A DNA stretch of 64,000 bases, from NCBI GenBank assembly GCA_965652395.1, contig CBFGUW010000002.1, positions 57,583 to 121,582 of the forward strand. The letters are read 5' to 3'. Below the pieces are notes generated by a model, which ran no database searches, was not told the origin of the DNA, and was given only the letters and a program-made list of their open reading frames with translations. This DNA comes from an uncultured Saccharospirillum sp. Its GTDB lineage: Bacteria; Pseudomonadota; Gammaproteobacteria; Pseudomonadales; Natronospirillaceae. This document shows positions 1,007 to 63,787 of this stretch, one piece after another (the stretch's first letter is position 1; the number at the start of each line of letters is the position of its first letter). Made by a program: the position numbers and the translations under genes.

Positions 1007-1119
1007 GCACCGGCTACCTGGTAGGCCCGTCAAGGGTCGGCATAAACCCATCCATGGGGCCTGGACCGCAGCATCCTTGCTGCGGACCACCCTTGACGGG
1101 CCTACCAGGCATCCGGTGC
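1007..1119. repeat. intergenic hairpin repeat (conserved core AACCCATCCATGGGGCCTGGACCGCAGC...GCTGCGGACC with copy-specific complementary arms), copy 1
   Basis: Core shared with elements at 1651-1774, 6469-6546, 6640-6767 (both inverted) and 63682-63787; arms CCTGGTAGGCCCGTCAAGGGT / ACCCTTGACGGGCCTACCAGG are perfectly complementary. Confidence 0.7.
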
Positions 1120-1166
1120 TCGCCTTGCCTGCTAACACGGACTGTGAGAGTGGGAGGAGGTCAAAC

Positions 1167-1595
1167 GTGCGTCAGTACATTCGACACCCGACAGACATAC
1201 CCCTGCACTATCATCTGGCCGATGAGCCGGAGGAATGCCACCCGCGCTTGAAGGATGTCAGCACGGGCGGTCTCAGTTTTTCCACCGACCAGCCGTTCGA
1301 TGCGGGGCAGATGCTGCGGATTCGCATTGATGTGACCGATCCGCCGTTCGAGATTCAGGGCCAGGTGGTGTGGTGCCATGCCCAGGATGACCATTATCTG
1401 GTGGGCATCAGTTTCGATTCCGTGGAAAAGGCTTTTGCGATCCGTATGGTGGAGCAGGTGTGCCACATCGAGCAGTATCGGTCGGCGGTCAAGCAATTGG
1501 AGCGGCGCGAGTTATCCTCGGAGGAAGCCGCCCAGGAGTGGATTGAGCGCCACGCCCGGGACTTTCCTGCCTGGCAGCCTCGGCAGGAGTCTTGA
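1167..1595 (+). CDS. PilZ domain protein (c-di-GMP receptor family)
   Basis: GTG start with GGGAGGAGG RBS at 1152-1160; RxxxR (RQYIR) and DxSxGG (DVSTGG) PilZ motifs. Confidence 0.65.
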   Translation: MRQYIRHPTDIPLHYHLADEPEECHPRLKDVSTGGLSFSTDQPFDAGQMLRIRIDVTDPPFEIQGQVVWCHAQDDHYLVGISFDSVEKAFAIRMVEQVCHIEQYRSAVKQLERRELSSEEAAQEWIERHARDFPAWQPRQES

Positions 1596-1650
1596 TCGAG
1601 TGTCCCCACCCTCCAACAATGGTTTAGATGTGTGAAGGCTAGCACCGGGT

Positions 1651-1774
1651 GCCAGGTAGGCTCATCCAGGGTGGTCCGCAGTATGGATCGGTCCGACGCC
1701 TCGGCTGCGGCCCAGGCCCCATGGATGGGTTGAGTGGGCGGCATTCCGCACGACCCTGGAGGAGCCTACCTGGC
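1651..1774. repeat. intergenic hairpin repeat, copy 2 (inverted orientation, expanded inner loop)
   Basis: Reverse complement contains CCATCCATGGGGCCTGGGCCGCAGC core; flanked by complementary arms GCCAGGTAGGCTC... / ...GAGCCTACCTGGC; lies between convergent PilZ and pullulanase genes. Confidence 0.65.
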
Positions 1775-1812
1775 AACCGATGCGGGTTCTCGGCACCAGA
1801 CTGTCTAAGGTG

Positions 1813-3984
1813 TCAGTCCTGATACAACACCGTCACAGCCGTCCCCTCGATGTCCACCGTGCCACTAACAGTCCTTCCGTTACCGGCATTCGGATCATTC
1901 CTTTCCATCGCCACCTTCCAGGTGCCGCCCGGTAGCGGGTAGCTGAAGTTTCCGCCCGAAGCGTAAATCACCAGGATTCGCGACCAGTCATCTCCGTTGG
2001 CACCGGCATTGATGTCGGTCACCAAGACATCGTTCGCGTAGCGCGTGGTGGTGACGTGTTGGTCGATCTCGTTCCAGCTGTTCATGCGGAAGCCGGGGTG
2101 GGCTTTGCGCAGGGCGATGGCGTCGCGGTAGTACTGATAGATGTCGGCGTTGTCGATTTTCCAGTTCCAGCGGATTTTGTTGACGGAGTCCGGTGAGCGG
2201 TAGCTGTTATGGTCGCCGTCTTTGTCACGCAGCATCTCGACCCCGCCGTGCAGAAAGGGGATGCCTTGGGAGGTCAGCACCATGCCGTTGGCGAAGTTGT
2301 GAATCCGCCGCAAATAGTCGCTGTTTTCAGGCACGTTGTTGAGCGCCGCCCAGGCGAGGATTTTGTCGCGGAGTGAGAGGTTGTCGTGTGCGGAGACGTA
2401 GTTGATGCTCTGCTCGGGGTCGGTGGCGAACATCGGGTCCCAGAGGTCGATAACCTGGTTCGGGTCGTTGTTGTATCGAATGCCGCCGCGGCTGCCGAAG
2501 TCGATTTGCCAACTTTGGCCTTGGTTAAAGGCGAAGCCTCCACCGTGGCCGCTGTCGTTGTCGCCTTTGATGGCTTCCCGGTATTTCGGGTTGAATACGC
2601 CAACGTGGGCGCTTTCCTCGCGCGCTATGGTGCCGAGGCGAACGCGTTGGGCTTCTCGGGTATCGGTGGCGTAGCCGTTCCAGGGTTCGCCGTAAATCAG
2701 CAGGTTCCGATCCGGGAACTGCTGATTCAAATGACGGCCCCAAGCGCCGAATTCGTCGTAATCGAAGATTCCCACCAGGTCGAAACGGAAGCCGTCCAGG
2801 TTGTATTCACGCACCCAGTATTCGAGGGAGTCCTGGATCATCCGTCCGACCATGGGGACGTTGGCATCCGTTGAGTTTCCGGTGCCGGAGAGGTCGGTGT
2901 CGGTGTAATACTGCATGGAGATGTTTTCGAACATTTCGAAATCGAAGGTGTGGTTGTAGACCACGTCCATTACCACCCGAATGCCCGCTTTGTGGAATTC
3001 GTTGATCATGGTTTTTACTTCGCGCACCCGCTCCAGATAGTCCGTGGTGGTGGCATAGCGTTCTTCGGGCACGTTGTAGTTGCGCGGGTCGTAGCCCCAG
3101 TTATAACAACTGGTGTCCGCCGGATCGGAGCAGGTGGAAAAATCGTAGAACGGTAATATCTGAACGTGGGTGACGCCCAGTTCTTTCAGGTGGTCGATTC
3201 CGGTAGTCACACCCTGATAGGTGGTGCCGCCTTCGACCATGCCGAGGTATTTGCCACGCTTTTCCGGTGATACGCCGGAGGTGGCGTCGATGGTGAAATC
3301 CCGAATGTGGATCTCGTAAATAATGGCGTCTTCACGTTCCACCAACGGCGGCGGTGCCACCCAGCCTCCGGCCGGTTCCGTGCGGCTCATGTCCATCACG
3401 ATGTTCACGTCCTGGTTGGGCAGGGCCATTTTACCGTAGGGGTCTCTCACCTGGACGCCATCGATGGTGAAGTAGTATTCGGCACCGTGCAGGTCTCCGG
3501 CGATTTCGATGCCGTAAATGTGGCTATAGCCCTGTTGATCAGCGAGCCTTGGCAGGGAATATGGCTGGCCGTTGAGCACCAGCCCGACGTTGGCGGAGTC
3601 CGGCGACCAGATGGCGAAGGTGGTTGCGCTCGGGCTGTATTCCGCGCCCAGTCTGTCAACGGTCAGGTTACCGGCCACAGTCTCGACCAGGCTGATCTGT
3701 TGGCTGCCGGTATCGAAGCAGATCTCGTAACGGGTGTCGGCCGCGACGTTATAGTCCGCCGAGGGGTAGCTTTCACTCCAGTCGGCATAACGGTCGATTT
3801 TAAAGCGGGGGCCGCCCGCCGAATCGCCATTACCGAAACTCTGGGTGGTGCACCAGCGGTTGCCGGTTTCCTGAGTCATCTGGGTCGCGCCCCAGCCGTT
3901 TGGCGTGCCGCGAAAATACCAGTCCGCCTGGGCCAGGCTGCTGCTTAGCGCGAGCAGGCCCACCATCGCCGTGATTTTCAACAT
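1813..3984 (-). CDS. pulA: type I pullulanase (GH13 family) with signal peptide and N-terminal CBM-like region
   Basis: YNWGYDP pullulanase motif, GH13 catalytic regions; start placed at MLKITAMVGLLALSSSLAQA signal peptide with AAGAGGAG RBS. Confidence 0.85.
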   Translation of the reverse strand: MLKITAMVGLLALSSSLAQADWYFRGTPNGWGATQMTQETGNRWCTTQSFGNGDSAGGPRFKIDRYADWSESYPSADYNVAADTRYEICFDTGSQQISLVETVAGNLTVDRLGAEYSPSATTFAIWSPDSANVGLVLNGQPYSLPRLADQQGYSHIYGIEIAGDLHGAEYYFTIDGVQVRDPYGKMALPNQDVNIVMDMSRTEPAGGWVAPPPLVEREDAIIYEIHIRDFTIDATSGVSPEKRGKYLGMVEGGTTYQGVTTGIDHLKELGVTHVQILPFYDFSTCSDPADTSCYNWGYDPRNYNVPEERYATTTDYLERVREVKTMINEFHKAGIRVVMDVVYNHTFDFEMFENISMQYYTDTDLSGTGNSTDANVPMVGRMIQDSLEYWVREYNLDGFRFDLVGIFDYDEFGAWGRHLNQQFPDRNLLIYGEPWNGYATDTREAQRVRLGTIAREESAHVGVFNPKYREAIKGDNDSGHGGGFAFNQGQSWQIDFGSRGGIRYNNDPNQVIDLWDPMFATDPEQSINYVSAHDNLSLRDKILAWAALNNVPENSDYLRRIHNFANGMVLTSQGIPFLHGGVEMLRDKDGDHNSYRSPDSVNKIRWNWKIDNADIYQYYRDAIALRKAHPGFRMNSWNEIDQHVTTTRYANDVLVTDINAGANGDDWSRILVIYASGGNFSYPLPGGTWKVAMERNDPNAGNGRTVSGTVDIEGTAVTVLYQD

Positions 3985-4265
3985 GAGTCGAGCTCCTCTT
4001 TTTGTTGTTGTCGCGTCGACTATGCCGTTTTCCCTCGCCCTTTGGCTTCCTCCCTGGGGATGATTTTCCATGCGCTCCAGTCAGCGCCCCGTTCCCCAGG
4101 GCTTTAGAGGGTTTTGCGGCAACGGCGGGGAAACCAACCCTTTGGCAAATTCCGCCCCCGGGGGAGGAAGACCTGAAAGAGCAGTGGGGGCACACTGTTG
4201 ACACTGAGTTGTACCTGCCCGAAATCCGGGCCGCACCCTACAAAAACAACGACGAGGTGATATTC

Positions 4266-6233
4266 GTGACACACTCTGTATTACACCCGAGCCGACTGGC
4301 GCTGGCCGGTTCCCTGGTGTTGGCCTCCCTGGCCATGCCCGCCCTGGCCGATATGGCCGCTTCCGCCAATGTGATGGCCCCGCTTGAAGTCAGCGACTAC
4401 GGCGCGTTCGAAAATCAGCTGCAAACCGCGAAGAATATGGGCGTGACCGCAGTGTCGGTCGATGTCTGGTGGGGCAAGGTGGAAGGCGCCGGTGACCAGC
4501 AGTTCGACTGGGGTTACTACGACGACCTGTTTGGCCGTATCACTGCCGCCGGGCTGGATGTGGTGCCCATCATGTCGTTCCACCAGTGCGGTGGAAACGT
4601 CGGCGACACCTGCAATATCCCGATTCCAGGCTGGATCTGGAACCACTACAGCGTGCCTTCGTCCGACCTGCGCTATAAGAGCGAACAGGGCAATGAATCC
4701 TGGGAAACGGTGTCTCTGTGGGCGGATTCCCTGGTGCTGGGCGAGTATCAGGAATTCATGGAAGCCTTCGAAAGCCACTTCTCCTACATGGCCGGTGACA
4801 TCGATGAGATCAACATCTCCATGGGCCCGGCCGGTGAGCTGCGCTACCCCTCCTACAACAGCCACGACACCGGCAGCGGTTACCCGACCCGGGGCGCGTT
4901 CCAATCCTACAGCGACCCGGCCAAGGCGGATTTCCAGGCTTGGGCTATCGACAAATACGGCAGCCTCTCAGGCGTGAACAATGCCTGGGGCACCAGCCTG
5001 AGTTCCACAAGCCAGATTCAACCGCCCTCCAACGCGGGCACTTTCGTCAGCAACGGCGACCATTACTACACCCAGTACGGTCGGGACTTTGTCCGCTGGT
5101 ATCACGACAGCCTGATGGGCCACGGTTACAACATGATGGACACCGCCCTGGCCGGTTTCGACGGCGCCTTCGCGGACATCGAGCTGGGCATGAAGATTCC
5201 GGGTATCCATTGGAAAATGTCGGCGACGGACAATACCAAGCGCAGCGCGGAAATCGCGGCGGGTTTGATACCCTCCGATGTCGACCTGGACAGCAGCGCC
5301 ACCGGTCACGGTTATGCGGATATCGTGGGTATCCCGGCCAGCTACCAGAGCGAGCCTCGCGGTGTGGTACTGCATTTCACGGCACTGGAGATGAACGACG
5401 ACCCTTACGGCGGCGGTCAGTCCCTGGCGCAAACGCTGGTCTTCTGGGTGGCCGAGGAAGCGGCGAACCAGGGCGTTCCCATCAAGGGTGAAAACGCGCT
5501 GGCCGGTGGTGTCACCAACGATAACGGCTGGGACAACATCGAGAATGCCTTCGACTATGCCAGTTACAGTGGCATGACGGTGCTACGCATCAACCAGGTG
5601 GCCACCGGCGGCACGGGGCAATACCGCTACGAGCAGTTCATCAATAATTATCTGCAGGTGGAAGGCGACTGGCAGCGGACGGTAATCTTCATGTACGGCC
5701 AAACGCAAAGCGGTCAGGATATGTTCATTCGCGGCGGCATCGACCACGATTACGCGAACAACAATCTGGGCCGCAACTGCGCGACGTCGAATTTCGACTG
5801 CGCCATCCGCATCCAGCACAACAATCTGCTCAATGCGACAACCCAACCCTGGAAACAGGGCGATTTGTACCTTGACTGGTACGGCCTGGAGGCCAATCAG
5901 GGTTCCGGTGCCGAGGGAACAGCGATGGATTGGACGACTAACCTGTGGCCAACCAGCTGGGGCACAAAGCGCACGGTGGCTGTCGACGGCTACGGTGAAG
6001 AACCGCTGAACAATTACGGTGACCATTACTGGATGCTGGATGTCCAAATGGACTGCTCCAACACCGTCAATGGCTGGTTCGAACTCAAGTCCTACATTTC
6101 CAACGGTCCTGGCTGGGAAGGCACCATCAGCCAAAGCGGCACGCCATATGCCTCCGGCAACCACATGGCGCAGTGCGGCAAGATCAACGTCTTCCAACGC
6201 AACAACAGCAGTGCTCAGATCCTGAACTTCTAA
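4266..6233 (+). CDS. beta-amylase (GH14) with signal peptide and ~230-aa C-terminal extension of unknown family
   Basis: [27 protein letters not shown] (catalytic Glu) and FTALEM (second catalytic Glu) motifs of GH14; GTG start with GAGGTGA RBS; signal peptide [28 protein letters not shown]. Confidence 0.85.
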
Positions 6234-6257
6234 CGCTAACTCTCTGTCGGACTTCAC

Positions 6258-6280
6258 GGGCGCTTCGGCGCCCTTTTTTT
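6258..6280 (+). terminator. rho-independent terminator of beta-amylase gene
   Basis: GGGCGCTTCGGCGCCC hairpin followed by T7 tract. Confidence 0.6.
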
Positions 6281-6287
6281 GCCTGTC

Positions 6288-6444
6288 GTTTTGGGATGGT
6301 GCCTCTGCTCGTTATGGCTAAGCCTTCTACGGTGTCTATCGTTTGGAATTGTGCCACTGTTTTATACGGCTAGGCCTTCTACTCTGCCTATGGTTTGGGA
6401 TGGTGCCACTGTTTTACGCGGCTAGGCCTTCTACTTTGCCTGTG
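6288..6444. repeat. three tandem direct repeats of ~52 bp (GTTTGGGATGGTGCCACTGTTTTA.GCGGCTAGGCCTTCTAC...)
   Basis: Units at 6288-6340, 6341-6392, 6393-6444 with ~85% identity; each unit contains a GGATGG/GGAATT motif and a palindromic GGCTAGCC. Confidence 0.8.
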
Positions 6445-6468
6445 GTCCGTGCCTGCTACTGGGGTAAG

Positions 6469-6546
6469 CCCCTGGAGGGCACGCCATTAACCCATCCATG
6501 GGGGCTCGGCGGCGCGCATCCCTGCGCGCCGACGTCCCTCCAGGGG
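6469..6546. repeat. degenerate copy of intergenic hairpin repeat (core CCATCCATGGGGG + inner stem GGCGCGCA/TGCGCGCC)
   Basis: Arms CCCCTGGAGGGCACG / CGTCCCTCCAGGGG complementary; inner stem-loop differs from other copies but preserves pairing. Confidence 0.5.
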
Positions 6547-6639
6547 CTTCCCCCAGCATCAGGCACTTGTTCTTAGGCTGACTGTGAATTGTATGATCCC
6601 TTTTTGCTTTATGGTTCAACCACAGTTGGAGTATGGGTG

Positions 6640-6767
6640 GGTCGAGGGGTCGGGGACTACCCTATGGGGATGTCGGCAGTATGGATCGGTCCGACGCCTC
6701 GGCTGCCGTCTAGCCTCCATGGATGGATTCACGGCGACCCCAGAGGGTAGTACCCGACCCCTCGACC
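6640..6767. repeat. intergenic hairpin repeat, copy (inverted orientation)
   Basis: Shares GCAGTATGGATCGGTCCGACGCCTCGGCTGC and CCATGGATGG core with 1651-1774; arms GGTCGAGGGGTCGGG.ACTACCCT / AGGGTAGTACCCGACCCCTCGACC complementary. Confidence 0.7.
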
Positions 6768-6935
6768 CGCCCTGGCACAAAAGGAGCACTACAAAAGTGC
6801 CACCAAAACAACCACGGGCACAAAAAGGGTAGGAAATATCAAACTACGGGCTAATTCGTCCTGATAGTGGGAGGAGGGTTGATTTAGGCTTGCGGGCGGT
6901 ATGGACTATTACAGCGTTCCTATTGAGCCCGGTAC

Positions 6936-9614
6936 ATGACATCGAATAAGAATAATACTTCTCGGTTCGTTCCCGACGCCAGCCGCAACCGGTTGTGGAT
7001 ACAGCCCTATAAACTCGTTCAGCCCAGCAGTGGTTCGCCCCTGCTCGACCGACCACGACTGATATCGCAACTGGATCAATGTCGGCAGTTTCCGCTCACC
7101 CTGCTGCGCAGCCCCGCCGGTTATGGCAAAACCAGCCTGCTGACGCAATGGGCCGCCGACACCCGCGCCAACGTCATGTGGTATGGGCTCGACCCCAGTG
7201 ACAACGACCCCAGTTATTTTGCCAGCCACCTCATTTACGGCCTCCACATCGCCACCGGCGAAGGGTGCCCCGACTCCCTGCGGCTCGTCGAAACCAACCA
7301 GTTCGACCGGCTCGACAGCCTGCTGACCAAAGCCTTGATCGAACTCTCCCACCACTTCGAGCCCCTGTTTATCGTGCTCGACGACGCCCATACCCTGGTA
7401 GAACCCGCCATTCTCAGTGCACTGAAACAATGGATTCGCTTTCTGCCACCCAACATTCATCTCATCCTCACCGGCCACCACGAACCCGGCCTCGGGCTCT
7501 CCGCTCTGCGGGTAAAAGGCCAGCTGCTCGAAATTCAGGCCGACCAGCTCGCCTTCAATCGTGACGAGCTCGACCGCTTTTTGCACAAACGCCTGCCGTT
7601 TACTCCCTCCGCCGACGCCATCGACCGCCTGATGGAAGAGACCGGCGGTTGGCCTGGGGGCTTGGAGCTGATCAGCCGTAACGCCCACAGCGAGGACGAC
7701 CTGGTCTACGCCAGTGGAAAGTTGCAGCGGTCTTTCCAGCATCTGGAAGCCTATCTCGACGATGAAATCTTGAGCGACCTGCCCGAGGCGCTTTACCACT
7801 TTTTAACGTCAGTCTGTGTGTTCGGGCGGTTTGATGCGCCGCTGTGCGATCAGTTGCTGGGGCGGAACGACTCCGAGACGTTGATCCAACAGTTGCGCGA
7901 GCATCAGTTGTTTATCGTTCCCGTCGATGAGGATAAAGGCATTTTTCGCCTGCAAGCTCTGTTTCGACAAACGCTGATCAAGCGGATGCACAGCCACGAG
8001 CCGGAGCGCTGGCGACAGATTCGCGTTCGGGCGGGTTACGCTTACCTGCATCAGGGGCGGCCTATGGAGGCGGCGCAGTTGGCTCTGCAGTTGAGTGATT
8101 CCGACCTTAACCTGGCGATTCTTACCTCCGGTGGGTTGGATTTTTACCGGTCCGGGCAATTCTCGGTGGTGCTGCGGTTACTTGAGCCGCTGGATGAAGC
8201 CACGCTGCTCGCCCACACCGATCTGATTCTGCTGAAAGCCTGGATTTGTCTGCTCAGCTACCAGGAAGACAAGGTGCTGCCCATGCTGGCTCAGGCGGAA
8301 AGCCGGTTGGGGCGGGACCAGCCCCAAATCGGGCTGGAATATGCCGTGGCCCGCGCTCAGGCGGCTATCAATGGTGAGCATTTCGCTGAAGCCAAAGCAT
8401 TGGCCGGTGGTGCCATCGATCAGTTACCCAGTGGTAGTTTTGTATCGCGAACGGTGGCGGCGTCGGTGTTGGGACAGGCGGCGCTCTGTGAGGGAGAGCT
8501 GGAGCAGGCGACGCACTATCTCGCCCAGGCGGAGGCGCTTTCGGTACAGCAGGGTTTGACCCAGCAACGGCTTTGGGCGTTGTGTTTGATGGCGGATGTG
8601 CAGATGGTCAAAGCCGAACCTGATTCAGCCTTGGATCGGCTGAATCAGGCCATGGCGTTGGCCAGGAATCATTGCATCGAGCAGGTCCTGCATATGGAGT
8701 TTGTGTATCGTAACAAGGCGCAGGTTCTGGTCGAGCGGGGGCAATGGGAAACAGCCTTGGAATGCCTGGAGTTGGGTACGGAAATCATCGAGCCTCTGGG
8801 TGACTACGGTCTGCTGAACGCCTACGTCATGCGTGGGCGCCTGGCGCTGCTCTCCAACGACCCGCATCTTGCCGGGCAGTTGGCGATTCAGGTTCGTAAT
8901 CTGCTGCAACGTTACCACTACCATACCGATTGGGTGGCCCAGGCCCATGAATTCCTGATCTGTGCGGATCGCCTGCTGGAACCGGGTGCCAGCCCGGTCT
9001 TCATGCCACCGGAATGCGACAGTGGCCCAGCCATTAATCATTTCTACCAGCATTATGATCGCAACCGGGCCATCGCCGCCTGGCTGAACGGCGATGAGGC
9101 CGAGGCGCGTCAGGCGGTGGAGACGCTGCTATCGCTGGCGGACCGACATGGCCTGAAACTGATGTCGCTGAAAGCCCATTTACTGCTGGCGGTCTGGTCG
9201 GACGACGACCGGGGTCTGGCTCATTGGCAGGCCATTCAGCCGGATTTACCCAAGGTGAGGCCGGTGACCACGTTGGACATCTATCGCCGCCTGTTCAACA
9301 TCGGCCACCGTGACTGGCCGGATTGGGATCTCTGGTTTCAGCCCAAAGACCCTCATCGCCCCAAGGCACAGGCCACCGATGCCGACCCTCGGTTGAAGCA
9401 GTTGAACCAGCGACACGCCCGGGGTCATGAATCGGTGACGGTGAAAGAGTTTCAGGTGCTGTTACTCATCGGTGAGGGGCTGAGTAATGAAGACATCGCC
9501 CAGTGCATGCATGTGGCGCTATCGACGGTGAAAAGCCACATTCGCCGCCTTTACCGCAAGCTGGACATCGACAACCGGGAACAGGCCAGAACCCTGATGC
9601 GAATGCTTCAGTGA
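6936..9614 (+). CDS. malT: MalT-type transcriptional activator (STAND NTPase + LuxR HTH)
   Basis: N-terminal SPAGYGKTSLLTQWAA Walker A and WYGLDPSDND/FASHLI blocks closely resemble E. coli MalT; C-terminal LuxR-type HTH; 892 aa; adjacent to amylolytic genes. Confidence 0.8.
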   Translation: MTSNKNNTSRFVPDASRNRLWIQPYKLVQPSSGSPLLDRPRLISQLDQCRQFPLTLLRSPAGYGKTSLLTQWAADTRANVMWYGLDPSDNDPSYFASHLIYGLHIATGEGCPDSLRLVETNQFDRLDSLLTKALIELSHHFEPLFIVLDDAHTLVEPAILSALKQWIRFLPPNIHLILTGHHEPGLGLSALRVKGQLLEIQADQLAFNRDELDRFLHKRLPFTPSADAIDRLMEETGGWPGGLELISRNAHSEDDLVYASGKLQRSFQHLEAYLDDEILSDLPEALYHFLTSVCVFGRFDAPLCDQLLGRNDSETLIQQLREHQLFIVPVDEDKGIFRLQALFRQTLIKRMHSHEPERWRQIRVRAGYAYLHQGRPMEAAQLALQLSDSDLNLAILTSGGLDFYRSGQFSVVLRLLEPLDEATLLAHTDLILLKAWICLLSYQEDKVLPMLAQAESRLGRDQPQIGLEYAVARAQAAINGEHFAEAKALAGGAIDQLPSGSFVSRTVAASVLGQAALCEGELEQATHYLAQAEALSVQQGLTQQRLWALCLMADVQMVKAEPDSALDRLNQAMALARNHCIEQVLHMEFVYRNKAQVLVERGQWETALECLELGTEIIEPLGDYGLLNAYVMRGRLALLSNDPHLAGQLAIQVRNLLQRYHYHTDWVAQAHEFLICADRLLEPGASPVFMPPECDSGPAINHFYQHYDRNRAIAAWLNGDEAEARQAVETLLSLADRHGLKLMSLKAHLLLAVWSDDDRGLAHWQAIQPDLPKVRPVTTLDIYRRLFNIGHRDWPDWDLWFQPKDPHRPKAQATDADPRLKQLNQRHARGHESVTVKEFQVLLLIGEGLSNEDIAQCMHVALSTVKSHIRRLYRKLDIDNREQARTLMRMLQ

Positions 9615-41947: not shown

Positions 41948-42209
41948 GGAGCCTCTGAACAATTCCCGCGCGGCTCTGCGGGAGCAAAAACGCTTTGCCA
42001 CTAGGCGGACTTCGCAGCGCAATGGCTGGTCATTGTCAAGAAGTCCAACGACGGGGCAGAGCGTTTTGGCCCCGCCCGAAGGGGCTTTCCGAGGAACGGT
42101 GCCACTGCGTTGGACTCATTTGAAAGGTCTAGACATTCCTGCATGAGTCCGCCTTGTGGCACCGTCCCTCGGAAAAGCCAGAGCCACGCGGGAATTATTC
42201 AGAGGCTCC
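41948..42209. repeat. palindromic MITE-like element copy B (~262 bp)
   Basis: ~90% identical to 219-510 apart from matched indels on both arms; TIR GGAGCCTCTGAACAATTCC / GGAATTATTCAGAGGCTCC. Confidence 0.8.
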
Positions 42210-44567: not shown

Positions 44568-44904
44568 AGCTCGCTCCTTGATCTGGGCGCTGATACTGCT
44601 GCCCTGGGTTTCGGCTACTCACGCCGACCCCATGCGACCGGACAACTATCAGTTGCCGCAGACAAACCAGGCTCCATCAATCGTCTCCGAACCCAGCCTG
44701 GTACTGAGCTCCATCTATATTCTCGACGATCAGCGCTATGCCGTGATCAACGGTCAGTGGCTGACTCTGAACGATACCATTCACAACTACCGGTTGACGG
44801 ATATCAGACCCGACCATGTTCACCTCAGACAGGGCAGCCGCCAGCGCACCCTGGAACTGCGGCAGGCGGGATCGCTATCCATCACCGAAACCGACGAGGA
44901 ATGA
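44560..44904 (+). CDS. mshK: MSHA biogenesis protein MshK (PilP-like lipoprotein)
   Basis: Signal peptide, ~110 aa, position between mshJ and secretin. Confidence 0.5.
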   Translation: MFKARSLIWALILLPWVSATHADPMRPDNYQLPQTNQAPSIVSEPSLVLSSIYILDDQRYAVINGQWLTLNDTIHNYRLTDIRPDHVHLRQGSRQRTLELRQAGSLSITETDEE

Positions 44905-55206: not shown

Positions 55207-56085
<879 letters not shown>

Positions 56086-56312: not shown

Positions 56313-57077
56313 GTGATTCCCGAAAAAGTCCTGGTGGTGTCTCCGGCTCTGGCAGAGACACTGGGCCTGGAAGAGGCGCTATTGTACCAGTTGCTGACCG
56401 AGCTGGCCCTACTGGGTGGTCAACCGTTACAGCTGACGGAAGAGCATCGCCGTCGGCTGCTTCCCTTTTGGAGCCCGACCCAACTCAGCTCGGTACTGCG
56501 TCGTCTACAGGCGCAGGGCTTGCTGACAGCGGAAGGGAGCGCTCCCTGGCAGGTCAGACTGATCGATCTCGACAACGAAGCAACGGAACCTGAGCCGGAG
56601 GCCAAAGCCACTGCACCGGCTGTGAGTCAACCCGTCGAACCACTCAATCGAGTGCCTGTGTTCGGAATGAACGATGCCCGGCGGCGGAACCAAATGGAAG
56701 ACGACCTGGCTTATCTGCGTAACGATCAGGCTCCCCAGGAATCGGTCAGAGCGGAACGGACGCGGATGCACGACAGCTGGGAACCCTCGGAAGACTTTCC
56801 CCGATTACTGTCTTTCCACGACATCCCACTGACGTTCGCCTTATCCGAACTGGCCAAGTTCCGTCAGTACTACCAGGATAAGGACAGAGCGGAATACAGC
56901 TGGGATGTTCGTTTTTTAAACTGGGTCCAACGGGCCTGGCACGACCAACTGAATAACAAGGGCCGATATGAGCGTACCCAACGAACCCAAAACACCCCAG
57001 AGAGTGCAAACCCTGCTCGGGAAAAGCGGGCCAAAGTTCGTGAAGCCCTTCGAAACATCCAAGACACAGACTGGTGA
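56313..57077 (+). CDS. DnaT-like protein (N-terminal winged-helix-like region, acidic linker, C-terminal DnaT ssDNA-binding domain homolog)
   Basis: C-terminal WEPSEDFPRLLSFHDI...ELAKFRQYYQDKD...VRFLNWVQRAWHD parallels E. coli DnaT C-terminus (YPDWQPDADFIRLAALWGV...ELASFIAYWQAEGK...VQWQQKLARSLQ). Confidence 0.6.
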   Translation: MIPEKVLVVSPALAETLGLEEALLYQLLTELALLGGQPLQLTEEHRRRLLPFWSPTQLSSVLRRLQAQGLLTAEGSAPWQVRLIDLDNEATEPEPEAKATAPAVSQPVEPLNRVPVFGMNDARRRNQMEDDLAYLRNDQAPQESVRAERTRMHDSWEPSEDFPRLLSFHDIPLTFALSELAKFRQYYQDKDRAEYSWDVRFLNWVQRAWHDQLNNKGRYERTQRTQNTPESANPAREKRAKVREALRNIQDTDW

Positions 57078-57765
57078 CGCTTCACCGCTGGATCACGAAA
57101 CCAAACTGCTGATCAACATGCTGTTCGCTCGGCTGCAGCTCATTTACACCCACCGTTTCGAAAGCGCCTACGGCGATGAGACCACCATCACCCAGGCCAA
57201 ACGCGAGTGGGGGTACAGTCTGGCCGGTTGCCCCAGGGAACGCATCGAATATGCTTTGGAACGCTGCAAACTGGAGTTGGCCTGGCCCCCGACCATCGCC
57301 GAATTCCGCGCCTATCTGGAACCCCGGCCCGAGGACCTCGGTTTGCCATCCACCCGCGAGGCCTACCTGGAAGCCTGCCAGAAAAGCCATGCCCCGCTGC
57401 GGGAGCGCTGGTCACACATTGCCGTCCACCTGGCAGCCAGAAACACCGGCTATTTCTCGCTCCGGTCGGAGTCCGAACGACTGACCTGGCCATCTTTCGA
57501 GAAAGCTTATAAAGAAGTGGTCTCGCGCTATGCCGATGGCGAAGAGCTGGTCATCGACACTCCAATAGCCCTGCCCGAGCCAGACCTGAGCGCCGAAGAG
57601 CGGTTGGTGGAACAGCTGGTGGCGGCCGGAGTGGAAAAAGCCGAGGCCTACCCTCTGGCCTACTACTTGGAAAAGCCCCAGGGCAGTGCCGTGAGAACGC
57701 GTTATCGGGAGCGGGCGCAACACCAACTCAAGGCGTTGAACATAGAGCTGACACTGCCGGATTAG
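56968..57765 (+). CDS. phage lambda replication protein P-like helicase-loader homolog (start uncertain: 56968 with 110-bp overlap, or 57118)
   Basis: LLINMLFARLQ...REWGYSLAG...LAWPPTIAEFRAY aligns in order with lambda P GVFSQLLATF...RQWVLAFREN...PFLPSPGQFVAWC; N-terminal length matches lambda P if 56968 start used. Confidence 0.5.
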   Translation: MSVPNEPKTPQRVQTLLGKSGPKFVKPFETSKTQTGDASPLDHETKLLINMLFARLQLIYTHRFESAYGDETTITQAKREWGYSLAGCPRERIEYALERCKLELAWPPTIAEFRAYLEPRPEDLGLPSTREAYLEACQKSHAPLRERWSHIAVHLAARNTGYFSLRSESERLTWPSFEKAYKEVVSRYADGEELVIDTPIALPEPDLSAEERLVEQLVAAGVEKAEAYPLAYYLEKPQGSAVRTRYRERAQHQLKALNIELTLPD

Positions 57766-57784
57766 TCCAGCGAATTGCCCGCAA

Positions 57785-58705
57785 TCAGGGGTTAACCGCC
57801 AGCTTTTCGCGATAGAAATCGATAAAAGCCCGTACCTTGGTCGGCATCTGCTTCCGGCTGGGATAGAGGGCAAACATCTGGTTGACCGGCAAACCTTTGA
57901 TATCGAACCGATATTCAGGCATCAATGCCACCAACTCGCTACGCTCAAGCGCCTCGCCGATCAGCAGATCCGGCAGCAGCGCCAACCCCAGATGCTGTTT
58001 AACGCCGCTGATAACCGCCGCTACCGAATGGCTGGCTACCCGGCTGTCGACATCCAGACTGTGATGGTCTTTTCCCTTCGTGCAGATCAATGACCGATAG
58101 TGTTTAAAGGTCAAAAAGGGATGATTCGACAGATCGGCGATGGTCCTGGGCTCCCCTCTTTCCGCCAGATAGTTCGGAGTGGCGCACAGCACCAGCCGGA
58201 CATCGGCGAAGGGCACCGCTATGTATGACGAATCAACCAGGCGCCCCACCCGAATCACCAGATCGAGTTGATCGGCCACCATATCCTGGAGGCTGTCGTC
58301 GCATTGAATTTCAAGCCTGATGTCCGGAAACCGGTTTAGAAATTCACCCAGGTGGGGCGCGATTTTCGCTTCCATCCAGGTGTGAGGAGCGCTGACCCGG
58401 AGCAGCCCAGAGGGCCTATCATGAAACTCGCTGACAGCCTGATGGGCCTCCGTCACCCGCCGCTGCACATCACGCGCCTTCTCATAATACAGCTGGCCCG
58501 CCTCGGTAAGGTTCAAACAGCGCGTGGTACGTTGCAGCAGCCGCACATTCAAATGCGCTTCGAGCGCATTCACCTGACGCGACACCGATGGCTGTGACAG
58601 CCCCAACCGCCGTGCGGCCTCGGAAAAGCTGCCGCTGTCGACCACGGCGATAAACACCTGCATGGATGCCAGAAGATTGGTATTCAGCAAAACCGGCTCA
58701 CTCAT
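57785..58705 (-). CDS. LysR family transcriptional regulator
   Basis: N-terminal HTH (FIAVVDSGSFSEAARRLGLSQPSVSRQVNALE), C-terminal LysR substrate-binding domain. Confidence 0.85.
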   Translation of the reverse strand: MSEPVLLNTNLLASMQVFIAVVDSGSFSEAARRLGLSQPSVSRQVNALEAHLNVRLLQRTTRCLNLTEAGQLYYEKARDVQRRVTEAHQAVSEFHDRPSGLLRVSAPHTWMEAKIAPHLGEFLNRFPDIRLEIQCDDSLQDMVADQLDLVIRVGRLVDSSYIAVPFADVRLVLCATPNYLAERGEPRTIADLSNHPFLTFKHYRSLICTKGKDHHSLDVDSRVASHSVAAVISGVKQHLGLALLPDLLIGEALERSELVALMPEYRFDIKGLPVNQMFALYPSRKQMPTKVRAFIDFYREKLAVNP

Positions 58706-58803
58706 ACGTTTTTCAAATAAATACTATGCGCCTGGGCATTATTGTCAAAAATCATTTATGAAATAACAATCGTCGCCTCCACATCACGCTTAAGAGGTTC
58801 ATC

Positions 58804-59544
58804 GTGCCATTTACGCTCTCTGGGAAAACCGTTTTGATCACAGGGGCCAACCGGGGTATCGGCTTGGGTTTTGTCACCACCCTGTTGGAGGCCGGAGTCA
58901 GCCGGATTTACGCCACCGCCCGTCAGGCGGAGGGGTTACAGCAATTGGCGGATATGAATGCGGACATCATTCGGGCGCTGCCGCTGGACCTGAACGATAC
59001 CGCCTCCATTCAGGCACTGGCCGGGCAGATTGAATCACTGGACATTCTGGTCAACAACGCAGGGACCATCGCCGCCACACGCTGCAGCGACGATAACGCC
59101 GTAGAAATGATCCGCCAGGAAATGGAAACCAACCTGTTTGGAGCGATGAAATTGACCTCTGAACTATTGCCCTTGCTCAGGCAATCCCAAGAGGCGGCGA
59201 TTGTGAACGTGTCATCCATCGCCGCGATCTGCAACTTTCCGTCCATTGGCACCTACTCGGTGACCAAAGCGGCCATGCAATCCTATACCGAAGGCCTGCG
59301 GGCGGATCTGGCCGGATCGTCGATTCAGGTGGTTGGAGTGTACCCGGGCCCGCACGACACCCGCTTGGCTGCCGGCACCGAGATGGATAAACCGGCTCCT
59401 GACAATGTGGCGGTAAAGACGTTCGAGGGCCTGGAACAGGGCAGTCTGGACATCTACCCCGACGAATTTTCGGCCCAGATGAGAAGTCTGTTCCGGGAGG
59501 ATGAGGCAAAACTGGCCCAACTCTTTGCCCAGATGAGCCAGTAG
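58804..59544 (+). CDS. SDR family oxidoreductase
   Basis: TGANRGIG cofactor motif, YxxxK catalytic (YSVTK). Confidence 0.8.
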   Translation: MPFTLSGKTVLITGANRGIGLGFVTTLLEAGVSRIYATARQAEGLQQLADMNADIIRALPLDLNDTASIQALAGQIESLDILVNNAGTIAATRCSDDNAVEMIRQEMETNLFGAMKLTSELLPLLRQSQEAAIVNVSSIAAICNFPSIGTYSVTKAAMQSYTEGLRADLAGSSIQVVGVYPGPHDTRLAAGTEMDKPAPDNVAVKTFEGLEQGSLDIYPDEFSAQMRSLFREDEAKLAQLFAQMSQ

Positions 59545-59553
59545 ATAGAAGGG

Positions 59554-60681
59554 TTATTCGTCGGCCGGTGTCATGTAGCGCCCACTGGCATAGCCGACGG
59601 TATCTCCGACCCGCACTTGCTGCCAGAAGCCTTCGGATTTGGAAGGATCGACCCAGACTTCAGCGCCGTCGCCGAGTTTCATAACGATCTCGGCATCCAG
59701 GGAAGGCTCCGCACGCACGTTCAACACCGAAGCGGTGATCGTCATCAGGATTTCCTTAGCAGGTGCCTGCTCAAGGTTGGGTTCGGGTTCTTCCTGTACT
59801 TCTGCGGTCGGAGCCTGAGCGGCATCAGACTCGGACGCCAGGGAAGAATCCGGCTCGACGGCAGGTTCCTGAGGCAGGTTTGGCGCTTCAGGCGCCTTAC
59901 TTTGCTCAACCGACGACTCGGCATTGGGCTCGAACGGCTCAATGGCGGGAGCTGGTCCACTGTCCCGGCTATTCGGCGAACCGGATGATTCCATGACCAG
60001 GTGCGACATTCTCGGAATGGTCTGGCGCCCCAATTGCAGTGGGCCCCACACCAGAAAAGCCAACACACCGGCCCCAAAAACCACCCCGGCCATGAACAGC
60101 CCAAGCCAGGCCCAACTTCGGCCCGCCGGTGGTTTTTCGTAGTGTGAATAGTTGCGCCGAACCGGATCGCTCACGCCGTAGAGGCGCCATTCCACCCGGT
60201 CGAGATAGCGCGGGTCCTCGGGCAGTAATGGCGCGAGATTTTCCTCGGCCTCCCCCTGAGTCTCTCGTTGAACCTGTTGACCGATGTCCAGAATCTCGAA
60301 TTCGGGAACATCCAGAATTCGCCCCATCAGCCTGAGCGCGAGGGGAACATGGCTGGGCATGTCGTGCGAAACCAGCAACAGCCGCCAGCAGCTCTCCACC
60401 AGGAAGGGCACCTGCTCCCGCGACAACGTTTTGGACAGCCAGCGCAACGCCTCGACATGATCGTCGACGCCCTTCTCTTCCAAAAAATCACGCCACCGCT
60501 TGCTCAATTCCGGGTCGGCATAGGGCAGCGCCTGTCGCAGTGTCGCTTCGAGATGCAGCTCACTGGCAGGATAAACATAGGCGAGCCACTGCAGCGCCAG
60601 GTGCACGGCCGCCTGGGTCGGGTCGGGGTGACGCAACCAGAAAGACGAGCTTTTCACATCAATATCAGCCAAGGATTTCAT
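59554..60681 (-). CDS. membrane-anchored protein: cytoplasmic helical N-domain, one TM, Pro/Glu-rich linker, C-terminal bacterial SH3 domain (start uncertain)
   Basis: TM WAWLGLFMAGVVFGAGVLAFLVWG; SH3_3-like C-terminus; ORF upstream of 60768 overlaps pnp terminator so earlier start unlikely. Confidence 0.4.
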   Translation of the reverse strand: MKSLADIDVKSSSFWLRHPDPTQAAVHLALQWLAYVYPASELHLEATLRQALPYADPELSKRWRDFLEEKGVDDHVEALRWLSKTLSREQVPFLVESCWRLLLVSHDMPSHVPLALRLMGRILDVPEFEILDIGQQVQRETQGEAEENLAPLLPEDPRYLDRVEWRLYGVSDPVRRNYSHYEKPPAGRSWAWLGLFMAGVVFGAGVLAFLVWGPLQLGRQTIPRMSHLVMESSGSPNSRDSGPAPAIEPFEPNAESSVEQSKAPEAPNLPQEPAVEPDSSLASESDAAQAPTAEVQEEPEPNLEQAPAKEILMTITASVLNVRAEPSLDAEIVMKLGDGAEVWVDPSKSEGFWQQVRVGDTVGYASGRYMTPADE

Positions 60682-60767
60682 AGTTCCGTCATTCAACCAT
60701 TGGCGCCGCAGGTTCGCAACAGGGCAATGCCAACAGGTCGCAGCGTCCCAACCCAATTGTGCGTCCA

Positions 60768-60794
60768 TAAAAAAACCCGGCATTTAGCCGGGTT
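60768..60794 (-). terminator. rho-independent terminator of pnp
   Basis: Minus-strand hairpin AACCCGGC-TAAAT-GCCGGGTT followed by T7 tract. Confidence 0.6.
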
Positions 60795-60820
60795 CTCATC
60801 AAGCTGCCTTGGAAAGCGAA

Positions 60821-62974
60821 TTATTCGCCTTCGGGACCTTCGACCTCGACACTGTCAGGATCAACAGCGGCGCGCTCTTCAGCGGTCACTTCGCGGATAG
60901 ACAGCTTCACACGGCCACGGTTGTCGACGTCCAGGATCTTCACGACCACGTCGTCTCCTTCACTCAGCTCATCGGTCACCTTGGCGATGCGGCGATCAGC
61001 GATCTGGGAGATGTGGACCAAACCGTCCTTACCGGGCAGGAACTGAACAAAGGCACCAAAGTCGGCGATGCGAACGACCTTGCCCTTATAAACAGAACCC
61101 GGCTCCGGCTCGGTGGTCAGGGACAGGATCTTGTCCTTGGCGGCCTGAGCGGATTCTTTGTTCGGGGCGTAGAGACGAACGGTACCGTCATCGGAAATGT
61201 CGACTTCGGAGCCGGTCTCTTCCACGATGGAACGGATGGTGGCACCGCCTTTACCGATCACGTCGCGGATCTTGTCGGTGTCGATCTTCATGGTTTCCAT
61301 GGTCGGCGCGTTCTCGGACAGCTGGCTGCGCGACTGTTGGATGACCTTCGCCATCTCACCCAGGATATGGGTACGGGCGGCGTGGGCCTGCTCCAGCGCA
61401 ATTTCCATGATCTCTTCGGTGATACCCTCGATCTTGATGTCCATCTGCAGGGCGGTCACACCGGCGTCGGTACCGGCCACTTTAAAGTCCATATCGCCCA
61501 GGTGATCTTCGTCACCCAGGATATCGGTCAATACCGCGAACTGATCGCCGTCTTTCACCAGACCCATGGCAATACCCGCTACCGGGCGTTTAACCGGCAC
61601 ACCGGCATCCATCAGGGCCAGAGAGGCACCACACACGGACGCCATGGAAGAGGAACCGTTGGATTCGGTGATTTCAGACACGACACGAATCGAGTATGGG
61701 AAATCGTCCTGTTTGGGCATGAGCGCCAAAACGCCACGCTTGGCCAGACGGCCATGACCGATCTCACGACGCCCTACCGCACCGATACGACCGGCTTCGC
61801 CGACGCTGAACGGAGGGAAGTTGTAGTGGAACATAAAGTGGTCGGTGAAGTTGCCCTGCAGCGAGTCTTCCATCTTGCCATCGCGCATGGTGCCCAGTGT
61901 GGTGGTGACCAGGGCCTGGGTTTCGCCACGTGTGAACAGAGCGGAACCATGGGCGTTGGGCAGGACACCGACTTCGACGCTGATCGGACGCACGGTCTTG
62001 TTGTCACGTCCGTCGATGCGGGGTTCGCCCTTGACGATGCGCGAGCGCACCAGTTTCTTCTCGAGCTTGGCGAAAATGGCCTGAACGTCGTCAGCCTTGG
62101 GCTGGCCGTCCTCTTCACCGGCAATGGCTGCTACCGCTTCGGCACGCAGGTTCGACAGGATGTTGTAACGCTCCATTTTGTCGGAAACCTGATACGCTTC
62201 GGCGATCTTGGCGCCAAAGCCATTGCTGACCTGTTCGATCAAGGCGGTGTTTTCAGGTTCAGGCTGGAATTCCCATTTCGGCTTACCGGCTTCGGCGGTG
62301 AACTCGGCAATGGCGGTAATGGCACCTTGGAATTCCTGGTGGGCGTAAAGAACGGCGCCCAGCATCTGGTCTTCGGACAGCTCATCCGCTTCGGACTCAA
62401 CCATCAGAACGGCATCTTTAGTACCTGCCACGACCATGTCGAGGCGGGATTCTTTCAACTGCGCGAAGGTCGGGTTCAGCAGGTAGCCTTCGGCATCGGT
62501 GTAACCTACACGGGCGGCGCCGATGGGTCCGGCGAACGGGATGCCGGAAATGCTCAGGGCGGCGGAGGTCGCGATCATGGCGCAGATATCGGGGTCATCC
62601 GTTTTGTTGGCGGAGATGACGTTCAGGATCACCTGCACTTCGTTCATGAAGCCCTTGGGGAACAGCGGGCGGATCGGGCGGTCGATCAGGCGGGAGGTCA
62701 GGGTTTCCTTCTCGGAAGGACGACCTTCACGCTTGAGGTAACCACCGGGAATTTTACCGGCGGCGTAGTATTTTTCCTGGTAGTGGACGGACAGGGGGAA
62801 GAAGTCCTGACCGGGTTTGGTGTCTTTGGCGGCGACGACGGTGGCCAGTACTTGAACATCGTCGATGGAGCACAGGACGGCTCCTGTGGCCTGACGGGCG
62901 ATACGGCCGGTTTCCAGGGTGACGGTTTTACCGCCGAATTCGAATTGCTTGGTAATCGGGTTCAAATGACTCAC
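60821..62974 (-). CDS. pnp: polynucleotide phosphorylase
   Basis: Two RNase PH domains, KH and S1 domains; GTG start with AAGGAG RBS. Confidence 0.9.
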
Positions 62975-63027
62975 ATGAGTCTCCTTTTCAGCTTTCTTTC
63001 AGTTAAAAGGATACCGATCCCAACGAT

Positions 63028-63080
63028 GCTTCTATCAATACGCCCTTTCCTTGAGAACATGAGGACACATTGATAGAAGC
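63028..63080 (-). promoter_or_regulatory. pnp leader stem-loop (candidate RNase III autoregulatory processing site)
   Basis: 12-bp perfect inverted repeat GCTTCTATCAAT / ATTGATAGAAGC in the rpsO-pnp intergenic leader; matches known E. coli organisation. Confidence 0.5.
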
Positions 63081-63207
63081 TCCACGGTTGGGCCAGCCCA
63101 TACCGGGGAAGATATCGTTGTTCACGGCTATCCGGATTCTTGGTTTTTCACCGACCCTTACAGTAGTCGGCGGGCGGGGAGTTGCAAGCGGCAACACTGT
63201 CTTGAAA

Positions 63208-63238
63208 TGACAAGGGCTCCCGTGGGGAGCCCTTGCTG
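63208..63238 (-). terminator. rpsO terminator hairpin (partial terminator allowing read-through into pnp)
   Basis: CAAGGGCTCCC-GTGG-GGAGCCCTTG hairpin 12 nt after rpsO stop, followed by U-rich TCATTTC. Confidence 0.55.
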
Positions 63239-63250
63239 GAAATCGTTGGC

Positions 63251-63520
63251 TTAGCGACGCAGGCCCAAGCGCTTGATCAGGCTGGCGTAACGCTCAACAT
63301 CTTTGCGCTTCAGGTAGTCCAGCAGTTTACGGCGCTGGTTTACCATGCGGATCAGACCACGACGAGAGTGGTGATCTTTGCCGTTGGCTTTGAAGTGGCC
63401 TTGCAGACCTTCGATGTTGCGGGTCAGCAGGGCGACCTGAACTTCAGGAGAGCCGGTGTCGGTTTCGTTCGCACCAAACTCTTTTACGATTTCAGCTTTT
63501 TGCTCAACAGTGAGTGCCAT
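63251..63520 (-). CDS. rpsO: 30S ribosomal protein S15
   Basis: 89-aa, canonical S15 sequence ([19 protein letters not shown]). Confidence 0.9.
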
Positions 63521-63681
63521 GGGCTAATAACTCCACGAATGTGCCTAATAAAAGGAGTGACCACCGTGCACATTAACAGTGGCATTCCAGCCCCGATCCC
63601 ACATGGACCGAAACCGCGCGCATTATACATGAAGCCCGTGGCCGAACAAACCCAGGTTGCGGCTCCTGCCGATAACCCGTA

Positions 63682-63787
63682 CCGGTGACTGGGTAAGCTG
63701 ATACAGGGCCGGCGTGAATCCATCCATGGAGCCTGGACCGCAGCGTCCTGCTGCGGACCTCCCTGTATCAGCTTACCCAGCCACCGG
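63682..63787. repeat. intergenic hairpin repeat, copy (same orientation as 1007-1119)
   Basis: Core AATCCATCCATGGAGCCTGGACCGCAGCGTCCTGCTGCGGACC; 27-bp arms CCGGTGACTGGGTAAGCTGATACAGGG / CCCTGTATCAGCTTACCCAGCCACCGG (1 mismatch). Confidence 0.7.

Follow-up and report, generated by a model that had tools for sequence, protein, structure and literature searches.

A dispersed hairpin element of Saccharospirillum and other Gammaproteobacteria with a predicted fold resembling the TwoAYGGAY motif

What kind of element keeps a fixed core between long arms that change from copy to copy and still pair with each other? The question is raised by a 64,000-nucleotide stretch of DNA from an uncultured Saccharospirillum sp. 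(GenBank assembly GCA_965652395.1, contig CBFGUW010000002.1, positions 57,583 to 121,582), which was analysed as a whole and is called the window here. An earlier description made from the letters alone, referred to below as the sequence-only reading, had noticed at least five intergenic hairpins with a conserved core in this window, and had proposed that they are selected for their structure, either as a structured RNA such as a terminator or as a hairpin substrate for a HUH transposase. Here, we present evidence that strongly supports selection on the structure of the element, and we favour, with modest confidence, a mobile-like repeat built around a variant of the orphan RNA motif TwoAYGGAY.

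A conserved junction with covarying arms

Exactly five copies are present in the window, at 1007-1119 (c1), 1642-1783 (c2), 6449-6566 (c3), 6635-6772 (c4) and 63679-63790 (c5), all of them intergenic and all at, or reaching slightly beyond, the positions first reported. When up to 3 mismatches were allowed, the window gave six matches to the core pattern CCATCCATGGRGCCTGG against 0.48 expected, and none of 100 shuffled sequences gave six. Five of these matches are element copies, while the sixth, at 44667 and with 3 mismatches, is a chance match without an element. A covariance model built from relatives found the same five copies at 41-99 bits and no other match in the window at E<=10. The copy that had been described as degenerate, at 6469-6546, turned out to be the complete element c3, which has the second-highest covariance-model score among the five (89.8 bits). 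In every copy the arms, 30-37 nt long and 86-97% complementary, are inverted complements rather than direct target duplications.

In the minimum free energy (MFE) folds of the five copies, a basal helix of 30-37 bp closes a three-way junction with two small hairpins, and the folding z-scores against shuffled sequence ranged from -6.3 to -11.3. Hairpin A has the form GCC-CCCA-UGGA-UGGG-UUYAC-GGC, and the stem of hairpin B, 8-11 bp long and interrupted near its base by a purine-A mismatch, ends in an A(N)GGAY loop. Written on the pattern strand, the wider core has the consensus gaCACGCCGTGAACCCATCCATGGGGGCTCGGC-(stem)-ATCCNTG-(stem')-GACGGTC; the arms around it vary from copy to copy.

We then asked how far pairing is preserved among relatives. 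In an alignment of 150 homologues from many Gammaproteobacteria, 93.8% of 5561 cells were paired, compared with 62% when partners were shuffled and about 39% when partners were slid by 1-3 columns; this alignment was fitted to the covariance model and leans towards it, but the effect size and an unfitted result agree. Changes on both sides were found at 36 of the 39 pairs, with 1700 compensatory cells, and none of 500 shuffles reached as high. The unfitted result came from RNAalifold on an ordinary MAFFT alignment of 58 copies, which recovered both hairpins and parts of the basal helix, with swaps such as CG:34/GC:24, CG:48/UA:10 and GC:35/AU:23 and zero broken pairs. These results show that the basal helix is free in sequence and that its pairing is maintained through compensatory change. 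Covariation thus goes far beyond chance, as the idea of a structure-selected element with co-varying stems had implied. The arms had also been called unrelated between copies, and this did not hold: in the lineage of the window copies the outer half of the arms retains the pattern GYRCCGG..ACCNGGGTA, and about 10 bp beside the junction vary between copies, again with compensation.

Relation to TwoAYGGAY and the strand that folds

Comparison with the Rfam model and with published descriptions placed the elements close to TwoAYGGAY (RF01731, clan CL00106), a known family that the sequence-only reading had not named. RF01731 was the top Rfam match of c5 (35.7 bits, E 2.2e-4 in a 211-nt search), and the alignment covered the full model on the strand that carries the GGA loops, with the basal stem, both loops, the ..AG linker and the closing CG(G) in register. 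It was also the top match in relatives, with 31 bits for locus L097 and 35 bits for L118, which is identical to c5. The motif dates from 2010, when it was detected in Gammaproteobacteria, in Clostridiales and in metagenomes of the human gut and graded 'probably an RNA' (Weinberg et al., PMC2864571), and Gardner and Eldai reported two strong CsrA-motif matches in it and proposed CsrA sequestration (PMC4333381). According to a preprint of September 2026 (10.64898/2026.09.22.753630), the motif in Pseudomonadota has elongated basal stems and variants with extra AYGGAY hairpins, and occurs at 11-23 copies per genome in most Pseudomonas groups, with a maximum of 202; its doublets are divergent in 68.4% of cases with a median of 249 bp, flanking repeats accompany it, and the link between mobility and regulation was left open.

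The present elements share with this motif the three-stem junction, in which a basal helix is followed by two successive hairpins with A-Y/N-GGA-Y loops, as well as the order of these parts, the ..AG linker, the closing CG(G) and the existence of variants with additional GGA hairpins. The junction was recovered alike in the five MFE folds, in the consensus fold and in the pair counts on 150 copies. Their genomic behaviour is also shared, since they occur in Gammaproteobacteria in many copies per genome, mostly as divergent doublets, and are flanked by repeat arrays. They differ in the second hairpin, which is shorter here (7 bp against about 15 bp) and contains a 5-nt UUYAC bulge, in the nearly perfect basal helix of 30-37 bp, and in forming part of a 184-bp unit that has terminal inverted repeats. 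In loop B, moreover, G or A often takes the place of the Y, or the loop measures 5 nt (as in three of the five window copies); GGA is kept in both loops, and the Y at position 2 of AYGGAY is not. Because of the short bulged second hairpin, the deviations in loop B and the long helix, we filed the elements as a variant of TwoAYGGAY and not as a member by the criteria of Rfam. At the gathering threshold, Rfam offered no family for them in the window or in 18 copy-bearing loci, and a literature search by core sequence found nothing relevant. The many weak matches to microRNA precursors at permissive Rfam thresholds were rejected as generic long-hairpin matches. To judge from sequence and predicted fold, the elements would be a divergent branch, unannotated in Rfam, of the orphan TwoAYGGAY family, and hence not new in kind.

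The mismatches of the basal helix are distributed unequally between the strands. Read on the GGA strand, the fitted alignment contained 162 G.U against 30 A.C mismatches (Saccharospirillaceae 74:11, Methylococcales 23:6, Marinobacter 4:0, Xanthomonadales 9:4 and the rest 52:9), and the G.U excess was spread across nearly all columns of the helix. A symmetric, ungapped count on 70 clean copies gave 119 A:C and 21 G:T for the strand that reads CCATCCATGG, which means 119 wobble pairs and 21 A.C mismatches on the opposite strand. This wobble bias indicates that the relevant folded single strand is the one reading CAUGGAUG. It argues for RNA, with single-stranded DNA less likely, and against a purely double-stranded DNA site. 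The structured-RNA half of the sequence-only reading is supported in this way by the G.U bias, the CsrA-type loops and the Rfam match; its suggestion of a terminator is not supported, because the elements have no U-tract and are therefore not intrinsic terminators.

On the GGA strand, both loops read C-A-N-G-G-A-Y-G, at a spacing of about 25 nt. Hairpin A reads CAUGGAUGG, with AUGGAU, in 103 of the 150 copies, and AUGGAU is present in all five copies of the window. In hairpin B, CAUGGAUG is the commonest loop among the 150 copies, the others being CAGGGAUG, CAAGGAUG and CCAGGACGG / CCUGGACGG; the window copies have AAGGAU (c1), AGGGAU (c3), AGGAC (c5) and AUGGAU with an insert (c2 and c4). Throughout the 150 copies, GGA is almost invariant in both loops and the positions around it are variable. 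The consensus selected in vitro by SELEX for CsrA is RUACARGGAUGU, in which GGA preferentially occupies the loop of a hairpin (PMC4347634). The loops appear to match this CsrA/RsmA site pattern, with at least two GGA hairpin-loop motifs fitting the consensus at a spacing that a dimer could bridge, and CsrA binding itself is predicted from this match. In some copies, the insertions in loop B are again made of GGA-loop hairpins. The extra GGA loops lie on the same strand in the Saccharospirillum loci L022, L082, L045 and L097, giving three to four GGA hairpins, and on the opposite strand in the inserts of Methylotuvimicrobium and of L092; c2 and c4 have a shorter insertion, with UAUGGAUC retained.

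Distribution, carriers and gene settings

The 22-nt degenerate core pattern matched in more than 110 stretches of genome DNA, which is a lower bound. Among the matches listed, Saccharospirillum genomes had many each, and the other hosts were Methylotuvimicrobium, Methylomicrobium, Marinobacter, Microbulbifer, Halieaceae, Alteromonas, Stenotrophomonas, Solilutibacter and one Pseudomonas. The structure-aware search of relatives with the covariance model gave 158 matches in 100 sources, including many copies without the exact core pattern. Copies were also seen in contigs of metagenome-assembled genomes under unusual labels, namely Thermodesulfobacteriota (L001, L044, L052) and Klebsiella (L031, L050); the Klebsiella-labelled contigs are very GC-rich, which makes mis-binning likely.

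In Saccharospirillaceae, a longer imperfect palindrome surrounds the module, which lies at its centre. The termini CTCAAGTTTCGGAGTT and AACTCCGAAACTTGAG were found together in 16 relatives, which range from 171 to 255 bp and ten of which measure 184 bp; these relatives are short non-coding units with terminal inverted repeats, as expected of a miniature inverted-repeat transposable element (MITE). Perfect 7-bp direct repeats (TTAAAAA and TTGCTTA) flank two of the 16 units, and partial AT-rich repeats flank several others. One of the duplication-flanked insertions sits in the terminal region of a neighbouring copy, and insertion into the end of a neighbour would offer a simple origin for divergent doublets. 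Among the window copies only c1 has a recognisable family terminus, and at one end. Comparison with the 184-bp Saccharospirillum units extends its MITE-like unit to about 972-1150 on the minus strand, farther than had been noted, with the terminus AACTCAAGTTTCAG at 972-985 and an outer imperfect helix in which gtgttagc...ttgcc pairs with ggcaa...gctaacac; the other end is degenerate and abuts the ribosome-binding site of the PilZ gene. The Methylotuvimicrobium copies have a different carrier with termini of its own.

In a search of plasmids the module turned up in ISXa1, an insertion sequence (IS) of the ISAs1 family on pDCA (NZ_KU922118), where ISXa1 adjoins a haloalkane dehalogenase gene. 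ISXa1 is 1572 bp long (L111 5937-7508). Its terminal inverted repeats CAGGGCAATCGCACTA are perfect over 16 bp, as is its 10-bp target duplication ACCCCAACCT over its whole length, and it carries one module inside each end (70.6 and 79.6 bits), divergent around the transposase gene; a copy with 87% identity has the same layout. The arms of its left and right modules are about half identical, each pair being complementary, and flanks and core are conserved. ISAs1 relatives with 59-66% identity have the same termini as ISXa1 and no module. The module was therefore acquired by the ISXa1 lineage, and the idea that it is a general ISAs1 trait was ruled out. We also rejected the idea that arms are made anew at each insertion, by palindrome insertion or inverted flank duplication, because homology is recognisable between the arms of paralogues, between those of orthologues and between those at either end of ISXa1, with at least about 47% identity and compensated changes.

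No autonomous element with the termini of the chromosomal units was found: ISXa1 has the module, but its termini (CAGGGCAATCGCACTA, with the 10-bp duplication) are unrelated to theirs. A tblastn search with the ISXa1 transposase gave no homologue near the chromosomal copies, and all-against-all clustering of the open reading frames (ORFs) of 110 loci gave no transposase, RAYT or other recurrent protein family beside the elements. Literature searches on CsrA together with MITEs, and on ISXa1, yielded nothing direct.

Thirty-eight pairs of copies lie within 2 kb of each other: 23 divergent, for which the median gap is 159 bp, 8 tandem and 7 convergent. Both doublets of the window are divergent; c1/c2 encloses a PilZ gene (1007-1783), and c3/c4, with a gap of 92 bp, lies upstream of a MalT-like gene. 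Gene-enclosing divergent doublets with gaps of about 1.3 kb were also observed in relatives (L017 1336-2843, L013 6227-7708 and L097 2257-3858), where the enclosed genes, as read from ORF translations alone, are FabH-like, hydrolase-like and amidase-like; their geometry is that of the two modules around the ISXa1 transposase (L111 5982-7463). Repeats occur at the flanks as well. A 52-bp tandem repeat at 6280-6441 (3.1 copies, 80% matches) directly adjoins c3, lying 3' of it as read along the GGA strand, and recalls, by analogy, the repeat arrays published for TwoAYGGAY (preprint 10.64898/2026.09.22.753630). In the Marinobacter loci L005, L013, L071, L072 and L091, GATCAG(A/G)CT directly flanks the basal helix 5' of the GGA strand, and this may be the counterpart of the GATCT, GCTCT and similar short repeats that the preprint describes on the 5' side.

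Resident copies are retained between species. In two close relatives c5 is 100% identical, and the spacer between c5 and truB has diverged there. Saccharospirillum salsuginis, with which the window is syntenic at about 75-77% identity, has an orthologous c3/c4 divergent doublet upstream of the MalT-like gene, in which the core is conserved and the arms are partly changed yet paired; the flanking genes are only about 75% identical. Species of Marinobacter, and likewise of Stenotrophomonas, have copies in common at the same loci. Copies at the same site with compensated arms argue that selection acts on resident copies, in addition to any recent spread.

The five window copies have the following settings. 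The GGA strand of c1 (1007-1119, 99.2 bits under the covariance model) is the minus strand; its basal-helix arms lie at 1007-1037 and 1089-1119, with hairpin A at 1039-1061 (loop UGGA on the minus strand) and hairpin B at 1063-1088 (loop AAGGAU on the minus strand), between a DUF1801 gene (531-932, plus strand) and the PilZ gene (1167-1595, plus strand). For c2 (1642-1783, 40.9 bits, arms 1642-1678 and 1747-1783), the GGA strand is the plus strand, on which it has an extra small hairpin, GCGGCAUUCCGC, with no GGA in its loop, and an insertion, UAUGGAUCGGUCCGACGCCUCGG, in loop B; the PilZ gene lies on one side of it and a convergent pullulanase-like gene (1813-4071, minus strand) on the other. 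Both c3 (6449-6566, minus strand, 89.8 bits, arms 6449-6479 and 6536-6566), whose hairpin B has the stem GGCGCGC/GCGCGCC and the loop AGGGAU, and c4 (6635-6772, plus strand, 70.1 bits, arms 6635-6669 and 6738-6772), whose loop-B insertion is the same as that of c2, sit between a GH14 beta-amylase gene and the MalT-like gene (6936-9614, plus strand); the GH14 gene has its own terminator at 6258-6273.

The last copy, c5 (63679-63790, 85.8 bits), has its GGA strand on the minus strand, sense with truB-rpsO, with arms at 63679-63708 and 63761-63790, hairpin A at 63711-63733 and hairpin B at 63735-63759 (loop AGGAC). It is located between the truB stop (63846) and the promoter of rpsO with its S15 leader. 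The ribosomal S15 leader itself (RF00114, 47 bits) was found at 63464-63640 on the minus strand, preceded by a promoter-like site TTGTTC-16-TATAAT; c5 is upstream of this site, in the 3' region of truB. Besides the elements studied here, the window has a second, unrelated MITE-like repeat of about 235 bp, at 240-490 and 41960-42200, in the same orientation and about 90% identical. Its ends read AATTCCCGCGNGGCTCTG... and ...CAGAGCCNCGCGGGAATT, it contains several internal palindromes, and it matched no Rfam family at the gathering threshold.

A predicted Csr/Rsm module and competing explanations

We consider it somewhat probable that the elements are a dispersed, non-coding, MITE-like palindromic repeat of Gammaproteobacteria, the centre of which is a TwoAYGGAY variant and a predicted Csr/Rsm module. 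On a transcribed GGA strand, the junction would hold two C-ANGGAY-G loops side by side, about 25 nt apart, a geometry that would suit one CsrA/RsmA dimer bridging both sites, and each copy would present a predicted high-affinity binding module on a stable stalk. Such a module might work as a decoy or sponge, or might bring the transcript of a neighbour under Csr control as a cis site, and the loop-B variants with nested GGA hairpins could bind several dimers. Transcription of the elements, CsrA binding and the decoy or cis effect are all predictions from sequence. The units of about 184 bp, with terminal inverted repeats and target duplications of 7-8 bp, would be spread in trans by a DDE-type transposase; insertion often beside, or into the end of, a resident copy would create divergent doublets, and resident copies would then be kept by selection.

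Several known classes invite comparison with this proposal. With the Csr/Rsm sponge small RNAs (sRNAs) CsrB and CsrC as well as RsmX, RsmY and RsmZ, the elements have in common GGA hairpin loops that fit the CsrA consensus, at least two sites at dimer-bridgeable spacing, and composite variants with three to four GGA hairpins. They are unlike these sRNAs in their long perfect helix, in the lack of a detectable dedicated promoter or terminator, and in their dozens of dispersed copies, compared with one to three regulated genes. ERIC, the Correia elements of Neisseria, the Yersinia palindromic sequences (YPAL) and REPINs are also intergenic, palindromic elements of 100-200 bp; they have terminal inverted repeats, form hairpins as RNA and are found in both orientations. 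Those families conserve the whole palindrome within a genus, whereas the centre of the present element is an asymmetric three-way junction conserved across orders, and its arms vary between copies.

A number of observations weigh against the explanation proposed here. The Rfam model leaves most copies undetected: in a scan of positions 1-7000, c1-c4 had no RF01731 match at E<=10, nor did c1 when searched alone, and every copy in the window and in the 18 copy-bearing loci stayed below the RF01731 gathering score of 43 bits. The G.U excess fits a folded single strand of DNA equally well, and conservation of the core could in part reflect requirements of transposition. Simple consensus scans found neither an attached sigma-70-like promoter nor an intrinsic terminator or U-tract at the window copies, none of which thus has the promoter and terminator of its own that a sponge sRNA gene would have. 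Orientation relative to co-directional neighbours, which the sequence-only reading had thought worth counting, is unbiased, with 20 copies GGA-sense and 29 antisense, a count that is only indicative, as the crude gene calls behind it miscalled at least two neighbours in the window. Without bias, many copies would be transcribed on the wrong strand unless they had promoters of their own. Clear target duplications were seen in only two of the 16 full-length relatives. No empty site was found either; comparison of locus with locus gave one distant, uninformative pair, a metagenome scan for one predicted empty site returned zero matches, and the truB-rpsO site is filled in both close relatives.

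Some of these points would be expected of a purely selfish MITE, for which the core and the hairpin would be cis-requirements of transposition (for example a subterminal site for a transposase or host factor, or a DNA cruciform) and the RNA a functionless by-product. Such an element would account for the terminal inverted repeats, fixed 184-bp length and flanking duplications of the relatives, for the numerous and clustered copies, for the unbiased orientation relative to genes, and for the subterminal position of the module at both ends of ISXa1. We nevertheless regard it as unlikely. The same core is shared by carriers whose termini are unrelated (the Saccharospirillum and Methylotuvimicrobium types and ISXa1) and is absent from both closer and more distant ISAs1 relatives, and orthologous resident copies stay intact while the neighbouring spacer diverges. 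Moreover, binding of double-stranded DNA explains neither the 5:1 strand bias of G.U over A.C nor the variation at the N positions around an invariant GGA.

It is more doubtful still that the RNA acts through its long stem, as a processing site for RNase III/E or as a 3' stabiliser or insulator comparable with ERIC, Correia and REP, the GGA loops being incidental or bound by a partner other than CsrA. The near-perfect helices of 30-37 bp and the intergenic position of all copies would suit this role, as would the positions of c2 and c5 just past stop codons and the somewhat more frequent settings between convergent genes (24) than between divergent genes (14), as counted on crude gene calls. 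It leaves unexplained, however, the conservation of the junction and loops across orders and the recurrence of GGA loops in nested inserts, and the missing U-tract excludes an intrinsic terminator. As for the single-stranded DNA hairpin substrate of a HUH enzyme (RAYT/REP, IS200/IS605), or another single-strand DNA transaction, which had been the second proposal for these hairpins, we judge it very improbable: structure conserved without conservation of arm sequence and a strand-specific wobble bias would fit it, G.T being tolerated in DNA hairpins too, but no recurrent gene family, RAYT and TnpA(Y1) included, neighbours the elements in 110 loci, nothing was found near the chromosomal copies when the only linked transposase, which is a DDE enzyme, served as the tblastn query, the arms lack the conservation seen in REP sequences, the terminal inverted repeats and direct target duplications of the relatives are DDE/MITE-like and not HUH products, no REP-like conserved 5' tetranucleotide or guide arrangement is present, and the element matches the RNA family model RF01731.

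Within the proposal of a MITE-like repeat with a predicted Csr/Rsm module, we tentatively raise the possibility that TwoAYGGAY-type modules are subterminal cargo, carried by ISXa1 and by several unrelated MITE lineages, which would scatter predicted high-affinity, dual CsrA/Rsm sites through the genomes of Gammaproteobacteria; doublets would then be the two ends of an element or insertions into the ends of copies. If so, the cargo modules could draw off the regulator or bring new transcripts under the Csr regulon, and in some cases, as with the PilZ gene, they would flank a single gene on both sides.

Among RNA motifs TwoAYGGAY, described in 2010, is still an orphan, with a putative role as a Csr/Rsm sponge and a mobile-like expansion. 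A variant that the curated Rfam model does not see means that the family is broader than annotated, reaching Saccharospirillaceae, Marinobacter, Methylococcales, Xanthomonadales, Halieaceae and Microbulbifer. The elements add new leads, namely a functional strand, a MITE anatomy with target duplications, the association with ISXa1 and the nested GGA hairpins, and they offer experimental handles in the form of a defined strand, a minimal module of 95 nt, units of 184 bp and an IS with a module at both ends. If the predicted CsrA binding is true, these repeats would constitute an unrecognised layer of Csr/Rsm regulation, including in groups without a known Csr sponge RNA.

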